NCBI GenBank assembly: GCA_052034685.1
Contig: JBPOIH010000002.1
Location: forward strand, 7,738 to 71,737
Reading direction: 5' to 3'
DNA length: 64,000 nucleotides
Source of the DNA: Patescibacteria group bacterium
Lineage (GTDB): Bacteria > Patescibacteriota > Saccharimonadia > Saccharimonadales > CAYUUR01
Each line of letters starts with the position of its first letter. The stretch's first letter is position 1. The notes under the pieces were generated by a model. It was not told the origin of the DNA. It made no database searches and was given only the letters and a program-made list of their open reading frames with translations. Both the position numbers and the translations under genes were made by a program. Positions 5,713-60,401 of the stretch are shown one piece after another.

Positions 5713-6671
5713 GTCTTGATTGTATCATCATGCCAAACATCTACTGGCCTGACACAATACATGCGCAAAAAGTTGGTAGGCGCTAACGACAACTTGATGT
5801 TTCTGAGTAATGGAAATCCCGAATCAGCCTCGATGTTTACAAATTTTACCCTCTCTTCTTTGAACCATCTTGCATACATATATATTGAAATCTCCATTAA
5901 ATATGGAAGTTCGTAACTAAAACGAGCATGTGACATTATCTTGTAATCGTCAGCAGGGCTATCTTGTAGAATCAAGAAACTATGTAGCTCTCCATCCAAA
6001 TACATGCCCAGTCCGTTAAAGCCAAGATCATTAGCCTTACGAATCGCAATCAACAGACAATCCTCTTCGTGTTTTGCGAAGTTATTCACGCCCCCCTTTA
6101 ACTTCCATCTGGAAACAAGCTCAATCAGCTCGTCAGCTTGATAAACCGAGCTCAGATCAAGCGGCGCAACTTTTATTCGCTCATTATTGTATTCATCTAG
6201 GAATCGCTTTAATTTCCACTGTTTGTGTCTTGGCAACGCATCAATATTGGCTAGTTGACGACAGTCCACAATACACTCATCGTGTTCACGCTCTGCAGTA
6301 AAGCGAAAGAGTTCTGGGTATCGGACTTGGCTAACCACATGTTCCGGGACATGAGTCAGACATTGCTTTTGTCCCTTTGACCGCTGAAAATCAAATACGG
6401 CGCAAAAAGTCTCATCGACATTATCGTTACCTAAAACCGTCAAGCCTGAATATTCATCATAACCTGGATACCACAAACATATCACCATGTTATTCCCGTG
6501 CATGGCAATTCTGCACGGCTCAAGCGCACTCCACCAAGTAAGTAAAGTACCGAAGCTTAGAGAAGCAGAAGGCTGAAATCGGCTACAAAATTGCTCGTAA
6601 AGCTCGCGGTCGGCAAGTGTGAGTTTGGTGAACTCAGGGAAGGTTTTGAAGTGAGAGGCACCTTTTTGCAT
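5709..6671 (-). CDS. Second, divergent stand-alone DUF2156 protein
   Basis: FPEFTKLTLADRELYEQF...SLSFGTLLTWW matches the N-terminal pattern of 1280..2179. ATG 6671 follows GGAG. Its 3' end makes an ATGA overlap with the decarboxylase start. Confidence 0.65.
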   Translation of the reverse strand: MQKGASHFKTFPEFTKLTLADRELYEQFCSRFQPSASLSFGTLLTWWSALEPCRIAMHGNNMVICLWYPGYDEYSGLTVLGNDNVDETFCAVFDFQRSKGQKQCLTHVPEHVVSQVRYPELFRFTAEREHDECIVDCRQLANIDALPRHKQWKLKRFLDEYNNERIKVAPLDLSSVYQADELIELVSRWKLKGGVNNFAKHEEDCLLIAIRKANDLGFNGLGMYLDGELHSFLILQDSPADDYKIMSHARFSYELPYLMEISIYMYARWFKEERVKFVNIEADSGFPLLRNIKLSLAPTNFLRMYCVRPVDVWHDDTIKT

Positions 6672-8315: not shown

Positions 8316-8813
8316 CTACTTGTTTAATAGTTTGGAAAAAAATCCTCGTTTTTGTTTACGAATGTCGAGTAGCAGCCCTGATTTCAACTCTCTTCGTACA
8401 ATTCCTGGTGACTGTTGCACATTCCCAGTTTTAGTTATTTCGAAGTAGTATTTCTCGTCCTGACCAAGGATGACGCACCCGAAACTAGCGTCAGCGGTTA
8501 GTTCTTGTAGAAATGGAAGCTTCGAAAGTTGCGTCCCAATACTAATAAGTTGTTCTTCCGTACAATTACTTTTTTGAGGCATATCAACTTTAGTATTGAG
8601 GCTTATTTTCCCGTACTTCGTAGAATCATCATAAAATGCCGTTAGTGTGTCGCTTTGATAGTGCAGTGTGACCTCGACTTGTTTCTCAAAGTTACGCTCT
8701 CTTACACAATACGTAATTGGCACTTTTGACATTGCAATAAGTAGCAGGAGATTTTGGTCTAGTTTCAAAATCTGATTAACTTGGTGCTCTAGATTATTCG
8801 ACATTGTCTTCAT
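8316..8813 (-). CDS. Hypothetical protein (~165 aa) in the inserted segment
   Basis: ATG at 8813. The track's TTG start at 8834 would abut the response-regulator fragment. Confidence 0.45.
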   Translation of the reverse strand: MKTMSNNLEHQVNQILKLDQNLLLLIAMSKVPITYCVRERNFEKQVEVTLHYQSDTLTAFYDDSTKYGKISLNTKVDMPQKSNCTEEQLISIGTQLSKLPFLQELTADASFGCVILGQDEKYYFEITKTGNVQQSPGIVRRELKSGLLLDIRKQKRGFFSKLLNK

Positions 8814-10289: not shown

Positions 10290-11616
10290 ATCCGTAACTC
10301 CTTTGTCGTTTTAATTCTATCAACCATACAACACCCTCAAACATGACTGCTAGCAACACAAAGCCCAGTACCTGCCCAGGTAGGGGAAAATATTTTCCCA
10401 TGACAAGGAGGCAGACGTACAACAAGCAGCCTCCGGCAATTACCGATAACAGTTGTCCGCCCGTATTATCTGGCGTGGAGGCAAATAGGCTGCCAGACAA
10501 AATGCCAATCGCCACAGCGAGCGATTGGAGTGCAATATAGGTAAAAATCATCCATAGCGGATCCCTGAGCGTAGCAAGCACAACAAAGAGGAGCGGTAAG
10601 CCCAGCAGTACGCTGAGTAACCTCAGCGATTGCAACTGCACCCGTACTAGGCTTCCCACTCCACTAAGATGTGCTTCTAACGATTTATACTTTCTAAAGG
10701 TGATGCGCGCATCGCAAAACACTGCCATAGTCATAAACGCAATCAGGTGCAAACAGTCTTCTACTGATATAGTTGCTGGGTTTTTTCTCATAAACAAAGC
10801 AGCTATACATAAGACAATGAGACTAAACACGAACGACGTCTGAGACTTTTTGTTGCGCAAGAACTTGATAGCGAACCAGAAATGCACGATGCAAAACTGT
10901 GGCCAACGCAGCCATACAGCCGGTAATCGGGCTCGGTACATGTACCGTTGCAAAAAAACAGCCGACAGAACTGCAATTAAAAGACAAACACCACACAGTA
11001 GGTACACATAGTTGAGCATGGCTATGTTAGATTGCGTAATGAATACCTTGTTTATTATGCGCCCCATACCGTATACCACTAGCCCAAAACTCGCGAACTT
11101 TAGGAAGAAGTAGCGCGTATAGGTAGCCGTTACTAAAGCCAGGCAACTAAAACAACCGAGTGCCAAAGTCAGCATAGTAAACACACTTGAAACTGAGTTA
11201 ACACCAGCAATGTAAAGCGCTGCAGGCATGAGGAAAATATAGCCAACAACGGCGAGTAGAAGCGCAGAGATATTGTGAAGTAAGTACCTTTTAGGTCGAG
11301 ATACTGGCAGCAGTGCGAGTACTTTAAGTGAGTTATTGTTTCGCAGTTCCACCATGCCGCTTGCACCAAAGGAAAATAAGACCAATCCAGTAACCAGGAA
11401 GCCGAAGATTGTAATCATCGCTAGTACAAGACCCTGCGGTAGATCGCCACTAATCCCCATTGTCCGTATAAACTCACGTGCACAAAACCCAAGTACGCCC
11501 GCAGCAATACAGCTAAATCCAAGCTTATAGGCGGCCGCCTGAGCTGGAGATGAGGCGTTTGCACCAAAGGTACTAATGATTACCGTTCGTAGAAGCATGC
11601 TAATCTTCCAGCCCAT
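10279..11616 (-). CDS. Polytopic permease (445 aa, about 10-12 TM), partner of the ABC ATPase
   Basis: Highly hydrophobic throughout. It overlaps the ATPase gene by 17 nt. Confidence 0.65.
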   Translation of the reverse strand: MGWKISMLLRTVIISTFGANASSPAQAAAYKLGFSCIAAGVLGFCAREFIRTMGISGDLPQGLVLAMITIFGFLVTGLVLFSFGASGMVELRNNNSLKVLALLPVSRPKRYLLHNISALLLAVVGYIFLMPAALYIAGVNSVSSVFTMLTLALGCFSCLALVTATYTRYFFLKFASFGLVVYGMGRIINKVFITQSNIAMLNYVYLLCGVCLLIAVLSAVFLQRYMYRARLPAVWLRWPQFCIVHFWFAIKFLRNKKSQTSFVFSLIVLCIAALFMRKNPATISVEDCLHLIAFMTMAVFCDARITFRKYKSLEAHLSGVGSLVRVQLQSLRLLSVLLGLPLLFVVLATLRDPLWMIFTYIALQSLAVAIGILSGSLFASTPDNTGGQLLSVIAGGCLLYVCLLVMGKYFPLPGQVLGFVLLAVMFEGVVWLIELKRQRSYGYVR

Positions 11617-18328: not shown

Positions 18329-18336
18329 ATGAAAGA

Positions 18337-18359
18337 ACCGTCCTTGTGGGCGGTTTTTT
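18337..18359 (+). terminator. Rho-independent terminator after tRNA-Lys
   Basis: accgtcc-ttgt-gggcggt followed by ttttt. Confidence 0.6.
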
Positions 18360-18385
18360 CATTGGTCGTCCGGAGCGGCTCGGTT

Positions 18386-18544
18386 CCTCGACTTGGCTGC
18401 TTTAGCAGACAAAAGTCGAGGGTTCGGTCACAAGGAGCTCTCGCAGATGCTTGCATCGAGAAAGCAACGCAGTGTGCATTGCCCCTCCTGCCTTGTTTTC
18501 ATAGACGAAGTTTCGGGCCGGCTGAAAGTCGGTCGAGTCCCTCC
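18386..18544 (+). repeat. tRNA-linked structured element E1 (a family-A unit plus a 3' fragment of a family-B unit)
   Basis: It shares about 85% identity over its first 45 nt with the element after tRNA-Pro. It contains GTCGAGGGTTCG (identical to the tRNA-Lys T-arm 5' part), CCCTCCTG-CC and TCGAGTCCCTCC (tRNA-Lys 3' part mimics). Confidence 0.65.
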
Positions 18545-18588: not shown

Positions 18589-18966
18589 ATGAAACGTGGT
18601 GCTTTTGCGGTTATTCTAAAGGGAGATAAGCTTCTATTTGTTAAACCCCCTGATTGGGTATCGCAATTTAGTGGCCATTGGAATTTTCCTGGAGGAGTTG
18701 TCGAACCTGGCGAGTCTCTTGAGGAGGGGGCAAAAAGAGAAGCTTTTGAGGAAACAAACATCGTGTGTGAAATAGAAAGCCTTTTGATGACCGATCACAA
18801 CGAAAAATTCGACACATCCATAGCAATATTTAAAGCAAAGTACATATCTGGAGAAGTCACAATTCAACCAGAGGAAATATCAGAGGCAAGATGGATGACA
18901 ATTGAAGAAGCCCTTAATGAGCCTCTCGCCTTTGACATCAAGCAGGCGTTACTAGCTTTAGCCTAA
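18589..18966 (+). CDS. NUDIX hydrolase
   Basis: Nudix box GGVVEPGESLEEGAKREAFEETN. Confidence 0.85.
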   Translation: MKRGAFAVILKGDKLLFVKPPDWVSQFSGHWNFPGGVVEPGESLEEGAKREAFEETNIVCEIESLLMTDHNEKFDTSIAIFKAKYISGEVTIQPEEISEARWMTIEEALNEPLAFDIKQALLALA

Positions 18967-19022: not shown

Positions 19023-19080
19023 GTGCGTTGCCCCTCCGACCAAAAGTTTCGGGCCGGCTGAAAGTCGGTCGAGTCCCTCC
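19023..19080 (+). repeat. Element E2, a direct repeat of the E1 3' part
   Basis: 19044-19080 is 37/37 identical to 18508-18544. 19023-19037 matches 18474-18488 with 1 mismatch. Confidence 0.85.
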
Positions 19081-35496: not shown

Positions 35497-35585
35497 AATA
35501 ACTCCTTATTACGATAATCATATATACCGCTGACAAATATGCAAGCATGAGTATTATGCGCTGTGTCGTTCTTCTATATACCAAT

Positions 35586-35609
35586 GAAAAAGCCGTCCAA
35601 ATGGACGAC
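35586..35609 (-). terminator. Terminator after tRNA-Arg(TCG)
   Basis: On the minus strand: gtcgtcc-attt-ggacggc followed by ttttt. Confidence 0.5.
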
Positions 35610-35617
35610 TCTTACAA

Positions 35618-35694
35618 TGGTACCCGCGGCAAGATTCGAACTTGCGACACCTGGTTCCGAAGACCAGTGCTCTAATCCACTGAGCTACGCGGGC
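35618..35694 (-). tRNA. tRNA-Arg(TCG), CCA encoded
   Basis: Hand-folded: GCCCGCG/CGCGGGT acceptor, anticodon loop CTTCGGA, T-arm GCAAG-TTCGAAT-CTTGC. Confidence 0.9.
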
Positions 35695-44895: not shown

Positions 44896-44957
44896 AGTAG
44901 CGCTATGGGGCAACGGTGCTGCGCCACTTACTCGAAGCGAGCTTCTGCGTGAGGTTT

Positions 44958-45080
44958 ATGGGGATCGGTCACGTTCCGCGACCCCGAAACTTCATCTTTG
45001 AAAACAAGTTTTCAAGAGAAGGTTTCCTTGCAAAATGCCATCAGGCATTTTTCACCCACGACAGTCGTGGGTTCGTTCAC
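44958..45080 (-). repeat. tRNA-linked structured element E3 (family B), downstream of tRNA-His
   Basis: Five hairpins whose arms covary with the copy at 48321..48470. It ends with GATCCCCAT, identical to the tRNA-His T-loop/T-stem 3' part. Confidence 0.65.
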
Positions 45081-45087
45081 TATTCAG

Positions 45088-45131
45088 CCCCAAATAAAAA
45101 CGACCCCATTTGGGATCATTTTTATTTGGGG
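45088..45131. terminator. Long inverted repeat abutting the tRNA-His 3' end
   Basis: ccccaaataaaaa...tttttatttgggg. Confidence 0.5.
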
Positions 45132-48320: not shown

Positions 48321-48470
48321 CAGGGATTCGACCTACCTTTGGCAGGCCCAGAACTTCTGCCATGACAACAAGTTGTCGGGTGAAGATTCTCTTGCAAACT
48401 GCAACCGGGCAGCTTTCACCCCGACCCTTGGGGTCGGGAGCTCGAACCACTTAGATAGACAACTCAAAAA
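48321..48470 (-). repeat. tRNA-linked structured element E4 (family B)
   Basis: Homologous to 44958..45080 with compensatory hairpin changes. It ends with TCGAATCCCTG (tRNA-Arg(TCT) has TCGAATCCTGC). Confidence 0.65.
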
Positions 48471-48515
48471 CCCGCTTGTGCGTGGTACGGCGTGATTACC
48501 GAGATTAAAATACTA

Positions 48516-48755
48516 CTATAGGGGATGAGTTGATTGGTGTAGAGCTTTTATCTGATCCTTTGAGAGTCTTTTTTTGTCGTTCTCTTCCCATACTCTGCGC
48601 CACTCACCGTATATTTTTTGACGAAGCTCAATATCGCCACCGGCTGCATCATCATATGCATACTGAATCCCACAGCTCGGGCAGATTTCAAATGAATCCA
48701 CGGGATCCAAGTCGCCCCAATCTTCGCCGCATACCAGACATTTGTATTTACTCAT
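48516..48755 (-). CDS. CPCC-type cysteine-rich zinc-ribbon protein
   Basis: CLVCG...FEICPSCGIQYAYDD. TATACT lies 6 nt upstream of the ATG, with no SD. Confidence 0.65.
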   Translation of the reverse strand: MSKYKCLVCGEDWGDLDPVDSFEICPSCGIQYAYDDAAGGDIELRQKIYGEWRRVWEENDKKRLSKDQIKALHQSTHPL

Positions 48756-48769
48756 GCAATAAGTATAGC

Positions 48770-48798
48770 AAAAGACCTCTCTAGCGAAGAGGTCTTTT
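48770..48798. terminator. Hairpin after tRNA-Arg(TCT)
   Basis: aaaagacctct-ctagcga-agaggtctttt. Confidence 0.55.
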
Positions 48799-48812
48799 AA
48801 TCATAAGCAAAT

Positions 48813-48889
48813 TGGTGCCCCGGGCAGGATTCGAACCTGCGACCTTGAGCTTAGAAGTCTCCTGCTCTATCCAGCTGAGCTACCAGGGC
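48813..48889 (-). tRNA. tRNA-Arg(TCT), CCA encoded
   Basis: Hand-folded: GCCCTGG/CCGGGGC acceptor, loop CTTCTAA, T-arm GCAGG-TTCGAAT-CCTGC. The anticodon stem has two mismatched end pairs. Confidence 0.8.
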
Positions 48890-49142: not shown

Positions 49143-50474
49143 ATGGATCAAGAGCCGCAAACTCCTAACACAGACGAACAACCAAGTGCGCCGCCCCCTC
49201 CGACACCGCCAATTAAGACAGAGGATGAGCTGTTTCAATCAGCTGGTCAACACATGGAAATGGAATCATCACCAGAGGTTGCACCAAACCCCGTAGTTGC
49301 GCCCAAGAAATCAAAAAAGAAGCCTATCGTCGCCGTTATTGTCCTAGTGGCATTGCTGGCCGGTGCAGGAGTTGTAGGCTATCTGCTCACGCAGGATCGA
49401 CCGGCCGAGACACCTGCCGCAACCGTACAGCCGGCCGAAACCAAACCCGTAGCACTTACCTACGAGCCAAACACTGTAACTTATACTTACCGCGCAAAGT
49501 CCTCTGACCCCGTAGCAGTATTCACACGTCCAGCTGCCGGTGGTGAACGCAAAGAGATCCAACAACTGACGCGCGACAGCATCATAACGGCTTCAGATAC
49601 TTCTGGGCCGAATAGTGCATTTGTTGACGGCAGCACCATTTACGTCAGCACAGATAACGGAGAAACCTACAAAAAAGTGTTTGAAGGAGAAGCCGGCGCG
49701 CAAGTGACTAGTCTCAAATTTGACGCAGACAATACCGGTTTGGCATTCGGCTACCTTAAAAGTGACAAACCAAAAAATGAAGTCAGAACAATTGATATGT
49801 CTGGCCAGAATGCTAAAACACTATTCACTGCAGACACCGCTGGCGCCTACATATTGGGGTGGTCAAGCAAAGCAGAACGCATGGTATACCAAACAGGCTG
49901 TTACAACTGTGATGGCAGGCCAGAAAACACCTACAGCTTTGATACCAAAAGCACCAAGCGGACTGCGCTACTCGAGGACGTAAAAGCTAATGAACTCGCC
50001 AGCATTTCAGTTTCAAGCGACACATCACTGATGATCTATATTGTAGGCGTCTATCCAACTAACTCTGATGATCCACTGCCGGCGCTGGTCCCACCTTACG
50101 TCGTGAACCTCATAAAGCTAAGCGGCACGGACAAACCTACTGAGATTGCGCGCATTGGTAACGCAGGTGAAAAAAACTCTAACGGTACACTCTTAACCCG
50201 AACAACTCTGGCTGGCTTCACAGCTGGCACCAACACACCGTACTACACCGCCGACAAACAGCTCTTCCTGGTGAAGGCAAACGAAGGACTGCTCTTCTAC
50301 GAATCGGCAGATGTCATAGAAAATGTTGATTACATAAGCGACAAGTATGTCATTTCGAGAACCGGTGACCCGAGTGATTTCACCATGGCTAACTACGATA
50401 CTGCCACCAAGAAATCAGTAACTATCCTCCAAGGTGACAACAACACCACTATCTTTGGCGTCACAACCGACTAA
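49143..50474 (+). CDS. N-terminally anchored extracytoplasmic protein, beta-propeller-like
   Basis: Pro-rich N-terminus, one TM, then repetitive beta-strand-rich sequence. Confidence 0.5.
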   Translation: MDQEPQTPNTDEQPSAPPPPTPPIKTEDELFQSAGQHMEMESSPEVAPNPVVAPKKSKKKPIVAVIVLVALLAGAGVVGYLLTQDRPAETPAATVQPAETKPVALTYEPNTVTYTYRAKSSDPVAVFTRPAAGGERKEIQQLTRDSIITASDTSGPNSAFVDGSTIYVSTDNGETYKKVFEGEAGAQVTSLKFDADNTGLAFGYLKSDKPKNEVRTIDMSGQNAKTLFTADTAGAYILGWSSKAERMVYQTGCYNCDGRPENTYSFDTKSTKRTALLEDVKANELASISVSSDTSLMIYIVGVYPTNSDDPLPALVPPYVVNLIKLSGTDKPTEIARIGNAGEKNSNGTLLTRTTLAGFTAGTNTPYYTADKQLFLVKANEGLLFYESADVIENVDYISDKYVISRTGDPSDFTMANYDTATKKSVTILQGDNNTTIFGVTTD

Positions 50475-50776
50475 TCGAGCTCGATTGCCAAAGACTTTTT
50501 AACCACTTTCTTATTTACAGAATTCTGGAAAAGTCTGTATGCATCACGGTTTTCCTTTACGTATATCATTTTAATCCCAAGTTCTTGATCGCAGCCCTGG
50601 CATACAAGTTTGGATTCTTTTGGCGTCAGGTTGATCATTCTATCAACATACATGCGTTTGAGTGGTCCTGGTCCATCCTTTTGGTATAGACAAATGTGGT
50701 CGTCACATTTCTCACAGGTAACATCGATGATCCTTGACCAGCCTCCTCTTGCTTCGCTGTAAGCGTCTTTTTTCAT
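50471..50776 (-). CDS. Small CxxC zinc-finger protein
   Basis: CEKCDDHIC...CQGCDQ. ATG 50776 is preferred because the track's extension runs into the tRNA-linked repeat. Confidence 0.5.
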   Translation of the reverse strand: MKKDAYSEARGGWSRIIDVTCEKCDDHICLYQKDGPGPLKRMYVDRMINLTPKESKLVCQGCDQELGIKMIYVKENRDAYRLFQNSVNKKVVKKSLAIELD

Positions 50777-50827
50777 AGTGCAATTATAACAAAAGACGTC
50801 GGGAAGGACGTCTTTGTGACTGGCTCG

Positions 50828-50993
50828 TGGTGCGGGTGGAGAGACTATCTGATAAATCAGATGCACCGGCAGCGCATGCTCGGAGCAAGCTCCTGTGCGT
50901 GCACTTTGTCTTCGAACTCGTGCTACGCCCAGTAGAGTTCGATTACTTGTTCACATACCAATCCTTTACTCTCGCGCAGCGAGAACAAAGGAT
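50828..50993 (-). repeat. tRNA-linked structured element E6 (family A-like), ending in an exact 17-nt copy of the tRNA-Gly 3' end
   Basis: 50828-50844 is identical to 50994-51010 (tggtgcgggtggagaga). Internal TCGAACTC...GAGTTCGA is an inverted copy of the T-arm, and there is a GTGCAT box. Confidence 0.7.
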
Positions 50994-51068
50994 TGGTGCG
51001 GGTGGAGAGAATCGAACTCTCGTCTCCAGCTTGGAAGGCTAGCATATTAGCCACTATACAACACCCGC
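50994..51068 (-). tRNA. tRNA-Gly(TCC), CCA encoded
   Basis: Hand-folded: GCGGGTG/CACCCGC acceptor, CTAGC-CTTCCAA-GCTGG anticodon arm. Confidence 0.9.
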
Positions 51069-51111
51069 AAAGTGTCGATTGACCACGCTATTATAACAGA
51101 GACAGCCTGGT

Positions 51112-51699
51112 CTATCCAGTGATGAGCTTCTCGAGCAAGTCGCCCAAAACGTAGGCAAGGCCTGCCGCAATCACGCCCAGTACGAGTGTTTCCATGATAG
51201 AACGTACCCGTGGAGCTTGAGCCACGCGACTTTTAAGCAAACCAATGCCAACAAACGCCAATGCCGTCATAAAGGCCGTTAAGTAGAATGCATCCATGTT
51301 GTTCATTCCAAGATCAAAGATAAAGTCAGCAGTAAACACCAGCAACGGCACCAACCCTACGAGGATAAACGAAGCATAGGTGGTAACACCATTCACTGCA
51401 GGTGACGGCTCATCGGCAATTGATTCACCCTTCTTTTCCATAAGTTGCTGCTCTGATTTGGTAGATAGATACGATCCGACTCCCATCGAGAAGCCGTCAG
51501 CAATCAAGTTAGCAAAGCCGAGCACCAACAAAATTTTGGCCTCAAAGCGCGCGCCAGTTGCACCAGCTACAACCGCAAACGTTGTAACTGCCCCATCGAT
51601 ACCGCCATATACAAACTCACTCAAATAATCTTCTAAGTGTTGTCGAGCCTTTTGATATGGGGATTTTTTGGTAGTTTTTTTCTGTGTAGTCATGCTCAC
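51112..51699 (-). CDS. VIT1/CCC1 family iron/manganese transporter
   Basis: YLSEFVYGGIDGAVTTFAVVAG. Confidence 0.8.
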   Translation of the reverse strand: MSMTTQKKTTKKSPYQKARQHLEDYLSEFVYGGIDGAVTTFAVVAGATGARFEAKILLVLGFANLIADGFSMGVGSYLSTKSEQQLMEKKGESIADEPSPAVNGVTTYASFILVGLVPLLVFTADFIFDLGMNNMDAFYLTAFMTALAFVGIGLLKSRVAQAPRVRSIMETLVLGVIAAGLAYVLGDLLEKLITG

Positions 51700-51706
51700 T
51701 AGTATA

Positions 51707-52351
51707 TCAGATAAGTTGCAGCGTATTCAGGCCGGCAACAACAACCAGCGGCACCAAGACATTATCCATTCCCAGCACACCAACATTTTCCATGAAGGCT
51801 GCAATGAGCGGTAGCCAAATGACAATCCAGATATTTGCCAGCGCATATGATGAACCCTGCATCAATACCACATAACCGATCAGCAGAAATGAAATAACCA
51901 GGAACGTAACCGTACCAACCACACTCTTCTTATACGTAAACACACGGTAGTGCCGTCGCTCACCATAAATAGTGCCAAATATAGCTGCAAACCCATCAGC
52001 CAAGGCAAGGTGCAACACGGCAACTGTAAATACAAGTTCTGTAGACGCGAGCAAAGAAGCCATTAGAATGCCCACCGGGAACAATAATTCACCGTGAGTT
52101 TTTCTCTTCACTTCATGGATAGCTTTAAAGGTGTTTAGTCTTTGCGAAACAAGTACCACCAAGAAGAACGCCACGCACATAACCCTGATCTCCTGCCAGG
52201 TCATAAAGTACGGCCAAAAGGCTACGTACATGCCCACGGTGACATGCACTAACTTGCGACCAACCTCGCCCCTCACGTGCTGTGCGCGCCACAGGTACTC
52301 AGACAAAACCAGAAGGAACAGCACACCGGCAATGGCGAATAGATAGTTCAT
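51707..52351 (-). CDS. CTP-dependent polyprenol/diacylglycerol kinase family membrane protein (dolichol-kinase-like)
   Basis: RKLVHV and LADGFAAIFG motifs; polytopic. Confidence 0.5.
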   Translation of the reverse strand: MNYLFAIAGVLFLLVLSEYLWRAQHVRGEVGRKLVHVTVGMYVAFWPYFMTWQEIRVMCVAFFLVVLVSQRLNTFKAIHEVKRKTHGELLFPVGILMASLLASTELVFTVAVLHLALADGFAAIFGTIYGERRHYRVFTYKKSVVGTVTFLVISFLLIGYVVLMQGSSYALANIWIVIWLPLIAAFMENVGVLGMDNVLVPLVVVAGLNTLQLI

Positions 52352-60241: not shown

Positions 60242-60345
60242 TGGGTGAAAGGGCAATGCACATGAATCTGTGCGCCGAGCATCTCGGGCAACAGACTCAT
60301 GACCGAACCTGCGACTTTCGTCAGCTAAAGCTGCCGAGTCGAAGG
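60242..60345 (-). repeat. tRNA-linked structured element E5 (family A), downstream of tRNA-Pro
   Basis: Its first 45 nt are about 85% identical to E1. It contains GTCGCAGGTTCG and ends in CCTTTCACCC, both matching tRNA-Pro. Confidence 0.65.
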
Positions 60346-60370
60346 CTCGAGACTTAACTCTTGACCAATC

Positions 60371-60391
60371 AAAAAGCCCACATTGCTGTGG
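60371..60391 (-). terminator. Short terminator after tRNA-Pro
   Basis: On the minus strand: tccaca-gcaa-tgtggg followed by cttttt. Confidence 0.4.
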
Positions 60392-60401
60392 ACTCTTTGA
60401 T

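Follow-up and report, generated by a model that had tools for sequence, protein, structure and literature searches.

What does an exact copy of the 3′ end of a tRNA gene stand for when it lies a short way behind that gene? The question arises at a tRNA-Gly(UCC) gene in a 64,000-nt stretch of DNA from a Patescibacteria group bacterium (contig JBPOIH010000002.1, positions 7,738 to 71,737). This whole stretch, here called the window, is a Saccharibacteria chromosome segment of 46% G+C, whose scanned genes have housekeeping-type or no matches in Pfam and whose nearest relatives that bear a label are Saccharibacteria MAGs. An original prediction, made from the letters alone, had described the last 17 nt of the tRNA as repeated on the far side of a 166-bp structured element, and had taken the pair for the cleanest att-like signature among five loci. 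Our analysis indicates that the duplication probably marks a non-autonomous, structured, tRNA-linked unit of ~166 nt, which would belong to a Saccharibacteria-wide family whose arms are matched to the tRNA, whose copies stack and whose architecture is like that of the RtT repeats of Escherichia coli.

The 17-mer TGGTGCGGGTGGAGAGA occurs exactly twice in the window, at 50828-50844 and 50994-51010 (+ strand, spacing 166), and the proximal copy corresponds to nt 60-76 of tRNA-Gly, including the encoded CCA. Beyond the exact pair, the nearest matches in the window differ at 3 positions; the chance expectation at up to 3 mismatches, estimated from shuffles, is 0.05, and 4 matches were reached in 0 of 100 shuffles. 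As had been predicted, the sequences flanking the two copies differ immediately on both sides, and every part proposed to lie between them is present (Table 1): the terminator-like hairpin, the AATCGAACTCT/GAGTTCGA pair, the long hairpin, the GGTGCAT box (50861-50871) and the hairpin ATCTGAT-tt-ATCAGAT, which is found 2 nt ahead of the distal repeat. The 166-nt unit contains no open reading frame (ORF) and folds with −59.1 kcal/mol, versus −47.2 kcal/mol for shuffled sequences (z = −2.8). Since the arrangement recurs in a separate Logan assembly (L004; loci of relatives are designated by such numbers) and, with substitutions, in NCBI assembly GCA_018001115.1 (L142), the duplication is not an assembly artefact.

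The comparison with relatives lacking the unit, which had been proposed as a check, indicates an insertion. In L147 and L148, tRNA-Gly(UCC) is followed by a short spacer, a terminator, a promoter (CGTTATAAT) and a homolog of the 101-aa gene that lies downstream of the window unit; the tRNA thus directly precedes a flank homologous to the window sequence behind the distal copy (S2), and the alignment of this flank from L147 beats 500 of 500 shuffles. The same junction holds an unrelated unit (of type C, see below) in L152, with an exact 17-nt S2 (TCTCCCCACCCGCACCA) that matches the T-stem variant of that locus, and in L098 and L056 the distal copy is situated at the place where tRNA-Gly normally abuts tRNA-Arg. 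These loci provide a direct repeat of the tRNA 3′ part bounding an insert, an empty site in relatives (L147/L148) and a site that was filled independently (L152). Judged from these alignments, the reading of the 166-bp unit as an insertion at the T-loop/3′ end of tRNA-Gly, which would have regenerated the tRNA end and displaced the old one, is supported, and by the same comparison S2 is the displaced original 3′ end of the tRNA.

With the parts named as in Table 1, the inserted block would consist of tRNA nt 60-76 followed by T1, AS, L2, S1, P3 and P4, and would have entered at the T loop; equivalently, T1 to P4 plus a 17-nt copy would have entered directly behind the CCA. Because the block brings new nt 60-76, tRNA-Gly stays intact, and the old 3′ end, the old terminator and the neighbouring gene are shifted 166 nt downstream. 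A precise empty-site junction of the window gene would read GAGAGTTCGATTCTCTCCACCCGCACCACGAGCCAGTCAC, and a circular or tandem junction of the unit TTTATCAGATAGTCTCTCCACCCGCACCAATCCTTTG. A simple terminator scan called T2 and not T1, which in the window Gly unit has no U tract behind it (in L001 the same hairpin is followed by TTTTTT); T2 is the original terminator of tRNA-Gly. The 101-aa zinc-ribbon-like gene is an ancestral neighbour of tRNA-Gly and not cargo. A reading of the unit plus this small gene as cargo or an integron-like cassette (482 bp missing in L001) was rejected at the Gly locus because the gene adjoins tRNA-Gly even without the unit, and a T-box-like or other 5′-untranslated-region regulator of the gene was ruled out by the terminator and the promoter situated between the unit and the gene. 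Units also stack, the newest being placed beside the tRNA and the older ones decayed (L094-His, L064, L082, and the Lys and His loci of the window); in L094-His, the order is a unit whose 21-nt copy is perfect, a second T1-type hairpin and an old unit of type B.

A tRNA that stays intact while its displaced end forms a direct repeat from the T loop on is the standard geometry of islands that target tRNA genes, as described for Islander (PMC4383910), and such islands likewise show empty and filled alleles among relatives. The locus could then be the scar of an integrase-bearing element (a remnant of a prophage, of an integrative and conjugative element or of the cis-mobilizable type), with the 17-mers as attL/attR cores and the 149 nt between them as what is left of a larger island. 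We consider this very unlikely. The unit measures only 166 bp, not kilobases, and has neither integrase nor cargo; no match to recombinase, transposase or reverse transcriptase families of Pfam was found among about 50 window ORFs, and the genes behind the units in 24 loci are diverse, as judged by inspecting their translations. The fetched Saccharibacteria-type loci contained no kilobase-scale island bounded by tRNA 3′-end copies: exact 16-nt copies all lie at +133 to +218 downstream, with one exception at +1223 in L072, within a tRNA array that was read as phage-like. To the left of the distal copy there is a hairpin and no T-arm-like core half-site, and 2.9 M viral contigs held no attP-like partner of the 17-mer, their 37 matches being phage tRNA genes or chance coding sequence. 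The copied length also varies, from 11 to 25 nt, and the interior is not a random deletion remnant but a conserved, covarying RNA-like scaffold, found across tRNAs and genomes and accompanied by an antisense copy of the target. Of the att-like signature, therefore, the insertion with a regenerated tRNA end stands (L147/L148, L152), whereas a classical att site of an integrase-bearing element is not supported.

The Gly locus, which had been singled out as a clean case on its own, turns out to belong to a tRNA-linked family whose scaffolds are conserved. Units are found behind four of the six window tRNA genes (Lys, His, Gly and Pro) and share a layout, on the tRNA strand, of T1, AS, L2, S1, scaffold hairpins and S2. 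T1 is a hairpin that begins at the base past the CCA and whose stem can close with ACCA:TGGT. AS is a degenerate antisense of the last ~31 nt of the tRNA, well kept opposite the variable loop, the T-stem 5′ strand and the T loop and poorly kept in its acceptor part; in the window Gly unit it is composed of TGGT, a poorly matching acceptor part and the well matching AATCGAACTCT, and forms with the tRNA end an inverted repeat (I1) with 42-nt arms that are 74% complementary. S1 is a sense copy of the variable loop, the T-stem 5′ strand and the start of the T loop, and S2 a direct copy from the T loop to the CCA.

Relatives were collected by scanning metagenome contigs with the 28-mer of the tRNA-Gly 3′ end, which yielded 96 loci. 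A strict two-motif test was passed by 10 of the 49 distinct loci with a window-type tRNA-Gly, and ~16 units were recognised by eye; S2 lies there at +150 to +220, often identical over 16-20 nt. Units are also present on His, Arg and Pro in L138, L093, L042, L069 and L049, and those with exact copies in other genomes follow tRNA-His, tRNA-Arg(UCU) and tRNA-Pro. Dozens of Saccharibacteria loci of Gly, His, Arg, Pro and Lys carry a unit. The duplicated length ranges from 10-11 nt (window Pro and His) to 25 nt (L098-His). A search of the literature on tRNA-linked repeats or integrases in Saccharibacteria found no description of such units.

At least three scaffold types (A, B and C) can be distinguished. 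Type A is found on Gly, Lys and Pro in the window and on Arg and His elsewhere; its hairpin P3 consists of outer and inner stems, separated by a conserved CGCGCA/GAGCA internal loop, and a CUUG-type loop, and the counterpart of the Gly box in the Lys, Pro and Arg units is GTGCAYT. Type B (window His, Arg in L143 and L001, and a module at the Lys locus) has three hairpins inserted between T54 and nt 55/56, and type C (L028, L064, L067, L089 and L152) combines a AAAATGTGTTTACATATTTT-type hairpin with GCGGAAATAGGGAGC..GCGACCGCC. In 13 A-type units from four tRNA species, double-sided changes occur at 9 of 9 pairs of P3; 89.7% of the cells are paired, versus 22-41% with the partner slid, and the observed covariation was reached in 0 of 500 shuffles. 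P3 was recovered independently by RNAalifold, and its G.U combinations number 6 versus 1 A.C. With six units of type B, the RNAalifold prediction has 37 pairs, of which 19 show compensatory changes, and the closing helix is the T stem itself, formed by S1 with S2. These comparative data show the scaffolds to be under selection for single-strand structure. Additionally, P3 is identical at 34 of 35 positions between L138-Gly and L093-Arg, and the Gly and Arg units of L089 have near-identical C-type hairpins, so one scaffold serves different tRNAs.

A covariance model (CM) of type A, R1, matched nothing but tRNA loci in the 64-kb window, including a partial copy at the His locus that was not in its training set; the match to the window Gly unit covers 50828-50960 with 99.4 bits, and further members were found in other loci. 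All 4227 models of Rfam 15, run at gathering and at permissive E-values on the window, its Gly and Lys loci and eight relatives, returned only tRNA, and a weak match to permuted transfer-messenger RNA (13.5 bits) was merely T-arm plus CCA. A strand-specific substitution test on the antisense arm was not decisive: C>T was commonest, but G>T and A>T were also high, a pattern accounted for by general AT drift.

The covariation of P3 and of the B scaffold, and the T stem acting as the closing helix of type B, would also suit small RNA genes that benefit the host, or processing elements in tRNA operons, inherited vertically and keeping their tRNA segments for processing enzymes, for example as an RNase P substrate mimic formed by antisense and copy. 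The conservation of RtT reported for Pasteurellaceae (PMC4986893) agrees with this, as does E. coli rttR, a processed RNA that ends at the CCA of a copy. We nonetheless find it quite unlikely, since presence is patchy among close relatives, where units are often down to T1 alone, several unrelated scaffold types occur on the same tRNA, stacked decaying copies resemble selfish turnover, and conservation is poor in the acceptor-complement part of the antisense arm. That the distal copy is the surviving 3′ end of a decayed second tRNA-Gly gene, derived from a tandem duplication, is extremely improbable. E. coli tyrT-tyrV does have tandem tRNA genes with RtT-like spacers, but traces of the acceptor 5′ strand, the D arm and the anticodon arm were seen in 0 of more than 30 units inspected, the distal copy aligns with the end of a single tRNA at the empty site, and the interior scaffold is common to units of other tRNAs.

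Table 1. Features of the window tRNA-Gly unit and its surroundings, and the other units of the window.
Feature	Coordinates	Strand	Support
tRNA-Gly(UCC), anticodon tcc, CCA encoded; last 17 nt (50994-51010) are the proximal copy S2′	50994..51068	-	ARAGORN; Rfam tRNA, 65.6 bits
T1, 33-nt hairpin from the first base past the CCA; stem extendable by ACCA:TGGT	50961..50993	-	
AS, degenerate antisense copy of tRNA nt ~50-76	50934..50960	-	
L2, apical loop/mini-hairpin (CTAC..GTAG) of the AS:S1 helix	50920..50933	-	compensatory change in L142
S1 GAGTTCGA, sense copy of the T-stem 5′ strand and T-loop start; pairs with AS	50912..50919	-	
P3 scaffold hairpin: outer stem, CGCACA/GAGCA internal loop, inner stem, CUUG loop	50872..50904	-	covariation
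TGCCGGTGCAT box and P4 hairpin ATCTGAT-tt-ATCAGAT	50847..50871	-	
S2, distal exact copy of tRNA nt 60-76 including CCA	50828..50844	-	placement against the flank matches the L147 tRNA end
Original tRNA-Gly downstream context: 12-nt spacer, terminator T2 (50791-50815), extended -10 TGTTATAAT	50783..50827	-	terminator scan; L147 flank homology
101-aa zinc-ribbon-like gene	50471..50776	-	154 homologs, Saccharibacteria-conserved
After tRNA-Lys: A-type unit (T1 18329-18362, CM match 18363-18492, S2 CCCCTCCTGCC), then 3′ part of a B-type module ending TCGAGTCCCTCC	18329..18544	+	
After tRNA-Pro: A-type unit, S2 = CCTTTCACCC	60243..60401	-	
After tRNA-His: T1, B-type unit (S2 CGATCCCCATA, 44957-44967), then older partial A-type unit	44900..45126	-	
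Partial older A-type unit at the His locus	P3 44931-44950; CCCCATAGCGC 44900-44910	-	

The layout recalls that of the RtT repeats. Knowledge of the 178-bp repeats of tyrT and of the RtT RNA in E. coli reportedly goes back to the late 1970s and the work of Egan and Landy in 1978, and other original descriptions are reportedly those of Rossi et al. in 1981 and of Bosl and Kersten in 1991. In E. coli K-12, a single unit lies between the two tRNA-Tyr genes of tyrT-tyrV, and tyrV is followed by three more, of 178 nt; every unit has a 19-nt copy at its end (AATCCTTCCCCCACCACCA, tRNA-Tyr nt 58-76; copies at +159, +337 and +515) and contains an antisense GGGGAAGGAT, a sense AAGGTTCGA and then GC-rich hairpins. 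The Rfam model RF00391 (RtT), whose consensus closing helix is antisense:copy, scores 133-137 bits on the four units (gathering threshold, 45 bits), and the annotated rttR begins 8 nt past the CCA of tyrV and ends with that of the first copy.

The Saccharibacteria units are likewise located immediately 3′ of a tRNA gene and are about 150-180 nt long. In both systems the units end with the exact last 17-19 nt of the tRNA, from the T loop to the CCA, as the window unit does with its 17-nt copy 149 nt after tRNA-Gly; both carry an antisense of the T-stem 3′/acceptor part and a sense T-stem 5′/T-loop part followed by GC-rich hairpins, occur singly (tyrT-tyrV spacer) or in tandem (three after tyrV, 1.6 in L138), and have no protein machinery. 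L034 and L075 allow an antisense:copy pairing, GGAGAGAA:TTCTCTCC; in the antisense arm of the window unit the corresponding segment is degenerate (19 of 32 matches), and the minimum free energy structure closes with other pairs. The Saccharibacteria units differ in their T1, a hairpin placed directly against the CCA for which the E. coli unit has no counterpart, in having at least three scaffold types and, among the loci examined, at least five tRNA species, and in a mirror-image 5′ form and a documented insertion polymorphism. By analogy of architecture, we would file the Saccharibacteria units as the same kind of object as the RtT repeats, and not as members of the RF00391 family. RtT members adjoin Asn and Lys tRNA genes in Pasteurellaceae, with Northern signals (PMC4986893), and the mode of action of the RtT RNA is unknown (bioRxiv 10.1101/2024.07.17.603846); validated small RNAs are not reported in the TM7x literature.

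Two short motifs recur in both groups, by chance or through distant homology: AGCGAnnAAGCGAG, which is part of L2 in many Gly units (AGCGAGCAAAGCGAGCCA; L005/L011/L058/L077) and of the RtT consensus gAGCGa.AGcgAGA, and GCGCGCAG, common to a Saccharibacteria scaffold and the E. coli RtT units (L146). The mirror-image 5′ units were seen upstream of tRNA-His in L024 (~460-585), L057, L070, L094 and L098, with the order old promoter, copy of tRNA-His nt 1-18/19, scaffold, D-arm antisense (GCGCTCTAACCAACTG), new TATAAT promoter and intact tRNA. In L098 this form comprises a 66-nt exact direct repeat (47 nt of upstream sequence plus 19 nt of tRNA) with a period of 125. It is absent upstream of the window tRNA-His.

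How such a tRNA-linked unit may live and spread can be outlined as follows. It would be co-transcribed with the tRNA from the tRNA promoter, as suggested by a T1 without U tract and by the position of T2 past the distal copy, and might be released as a ~166-nt RNA with the tRNA-like CCA of S2 as its 3′ end, in keeping with the annotation of rttR in E. coli; in the transcript, this CCA would precede the original tRNA trailer and terminator. Repeated insertions would stack, and older units would decay or be deleted down to T1. Spread could dispense with an element-encoded recombinase because the unit is bracketed by a whole tRNA on the left and a tRNA 3′ end on the right. Saccharibacteria are naturally competent, and recombination after DNA uptake, or unequal exchange, could place, multiply or remove the unit at any copy of that tRNA gene.

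Several observations weigh against the reading of the locus as an inserted, mobile, RtT-like unit. In most other units T1 resembles a full terminator, and the homology-bracket mechanism accounts neither for the moves of scaffolds between tRNA species nor for the existence of the arms AS and S1. L001, the second-closest relative (80-83% nt), keeps a near-identical T1 without everything from AS through the small gene, which implies either a secondary deletion that broke exactly at T1/AS or a different insertion boundary; many unit-less loci still carry a T1-type hairpin plus TGGT. RF00391 has no match in window 50700-51100 (E<=10), in the Lys locus (E<=5) or in eight unit-bearing loci (E<=1), and the A-type CM has none to E. 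coli RtT; as neither model detects the other family, the RtT link is architectural and homology is not demonstrated. The conservation between the window and L142, its closest relative, was rejected as evidence for selection. Over window 50471-52351, third-codon identity is 0.68 for VIT1, 0.86 for the 443-aa gene and 0.94 for the small gene, and T1 is 76% identical while S1 to T2 are 97-100% identical. By these identities, the pair diverges as a recombination mosaic whose breakpoint falls within the unit, close to L2; it is the mosaic that the high S1..S2 identity reflects, so this pair is silent on selection. Finally, L138/L139 contain a 1.6-mer, in which 60 nt (S1-P3) lie between two exact copies of a 90-nt segment (S2-T1-AS-L2); it has the look of an in-situ tandem duplication, not of a fresh insertion.

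Contigs from Logan break at such repeats at the end of L003 and the start of L004 and at the ends of L140 and L141. The break is at the tRNA-Gly 3′ end in SRR34217542, and in two other runs it comes 30 nt into the 90-nt repeat, which confirms the repeat seen in L138.

Duplications of this kind raise the question of whether local replication errors could have produced the units altogether, by template switching at the terminator hairpin (quasi-palindrome extension) and tandem duplication, with neither mobility nor function. AS begins exactly where T1 has its foot, forming a mirror of the tRNA end over the arms of I1, and the young cases are plain tandem duplications (the L138 90-nt repeat, with a period of 150, and the 5′ 66-nt repeat of L098-His, with that of 125). 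The arms also follow lineage-specific tRNA variants, as repeated templated correction would give: the variants A50C, C56T and T64G of the L138 tRNA-Gly are mirrored in AS, S1 and S2, and where the His units of the window and of L138 differ by G57/A57, AS and S2 mirror the difference. This origin is nevertheless unlikely, given scaffolds that are homologous across tRNAs and genomes (P3 of L138-Gly and L093-Arg; Gly and Arg units of L089) and evolve by compensatory change, two unit types at the same orthologous junction, and an antisense arm in L152 that reflects a non-resident tRNA variant. Taken together, the observations on L001, on L138/L139 and on the arm variants point to occasional insertion overlaid by frequent duplication, deletion and templated correction at the local scale.

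Position 56 of tRNA is normally a near-invariant C. The L138 tRNA-Gly (8626-8700) has T at this position, a T loop TTTGATT and a T stem GCGAG/CTCGC, and these variants are also present in AS, S1 and S2 of its unit. In L143 (8615-8689) and L145, the whole tRNA-Gly module, with promoter, gene and abutting hairpin, is inverted and has no unit; it is situated between the same flanking genes as in the window, VIT1 and a ~444-aa gene. Two alleles of tRNA-Arg(UCU), with the anticodon stems GGAGACTTCTAAGCTC and GTGGGTTCTAACCAT, were seen on comparing the window (48813-48889), L138 (10481-10557), L001 (5832-5908) and L143 (10350-10426). L001 groups with the distant L143, with which it shares a B-type unit, and the window with L138, in conflict with the relatedness of the flanking genes, which suggests that whole tRNA-plus-unit modules may be exchanged. 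The B-type Arg units of L143 (~10570-10640) and L001 (~6050-6120) contain a 27-nt perfect hairpin, GTCCGCCCTGTCTGGAGACAGGCGGGC, between TCGAATCCCT and CTCCCGGGGTACCA; since it lies inside the distal tRNA copy, small hairpins also land in the displaced T-stem strand.

Other tRNA loci of the window have their own peculiarities. Downstream of tRNA-Lys, a 35-nt exact direct repeat (GTTTCGGGCCGGCTGAAAGTCGGTCGAGTCCCTCC, 18510-18544 and 19046-19080, +) flanks a 125-aa NUDIX gene (ORF 18589-18966). The repeat is the hairpin plus T-loop/T-stem 3′ copy of the B-type module, each copy is preceded by GTGC(A/G)TTGCCCCTCC, and the gene looks like a single-gene cassette inserted at, or duplicated with, the unit end. 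The tRNA-Arg(UCG) gene (35618-35694) has no unit; an abutting hairpin, AAGAGTCGTCCATTTGGACGGCTTTTTCATTGG (within 35570-35617, -), is nearly identical to the tRNA-Pro T1 of L143/L138 and similar to the window Lys T1, and the TGGTA...CGACAC after it is possibly the stump of a deleted unit. Downstream of tRNA-Arg(UCU), the region 48450-48811 (-) holds a 79-aa CxxC-rich ORF (48516-48755) that has a promoter of its own and in whose place L001 has 45 bp; TTTGAAATCTGCCCG inside the ORF resembles TTCGAATCCTGCCCG of this tRNA at 13 of 15 positions, which may be chance.

A bolder proposal is that the units, and by extension the RtT repeats of E. coli, form a class of recombinase-free selfish elements specialised on tRNA genes, which we put forward tentatively and as more doubtful than probable. 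Such an element would be a conserved RNA scaffold flanked by a copy and an antisense copy of the 3′ third of a tRNA; it would ride the tRNA promoter and be excised by the tRNA-processing machinery as a mimic of a tRNA end. Since tRNA sequence brackets it on both sides, the element might enter naive copies of the gene by recombination following natural transformation, or by way of a single-stranded or RNA intermediate whose fold imitates the target duplex, and re-templating of the arms would retarget the element to other tRNAs.

Known short repeats share part of these properties. Miniature inverted-repeat transposable elements (MITEs), repetitive extragenic palindromes and bacterial interspersed mosaic elements (REP/BIME), Correia elements and Rickettsia palindromic elements (RPE) are likewise short, hairpin-rich, intergenic, multicopy and without ORF, and are often terminators or RNA-processing sites. 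In the window, by contrast, the units occur only at tRNA genes, and each has sequence specific to the neighbouring tRNA. The fixed terminal inverted repeats and fixed-length target duplication of MITEs were not found, the ends being tRNA-specific and different between loci. The bridge (seek) RNAs of the insertion sequences IS110/IS1111 also combine a conserved scaffold with segments identical or complementary to both target strands; the units differ in having no DEDD recombinase gene in or near them and a duplication of 17 nt versus a 2-nt core.

The literature calls the role of RtT ‘likely’ or ‘unknown’, and there is no accepted origin or function. An RtT-type architecture is now found in a distant, genome-reduced phylum, with many tRNA species, several scaffold types, empty and filled alleles and stacked generations; by analogy, and as far as the literature search goes, the units may be regarded as a multi-tRNA, multi-scaffold variant of the RtT-type tRNA-linked repeat that is new for Saccharibacteria. 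Island finders and the annotation of tRNA flanks will take the copies for att sites, and the breaks of Logan contigs imply that short-read assemblies of Saccharibacteria often fragment at tRNA-linked units. The family provides comparative material to separate element-borne from tRNA-tracking parts, to place the insertion and to identify the helices under selection, and, because intergenic DNA is very scarce in Saccharibacteria, the units make up a sizeable share of their non-coding sequence.

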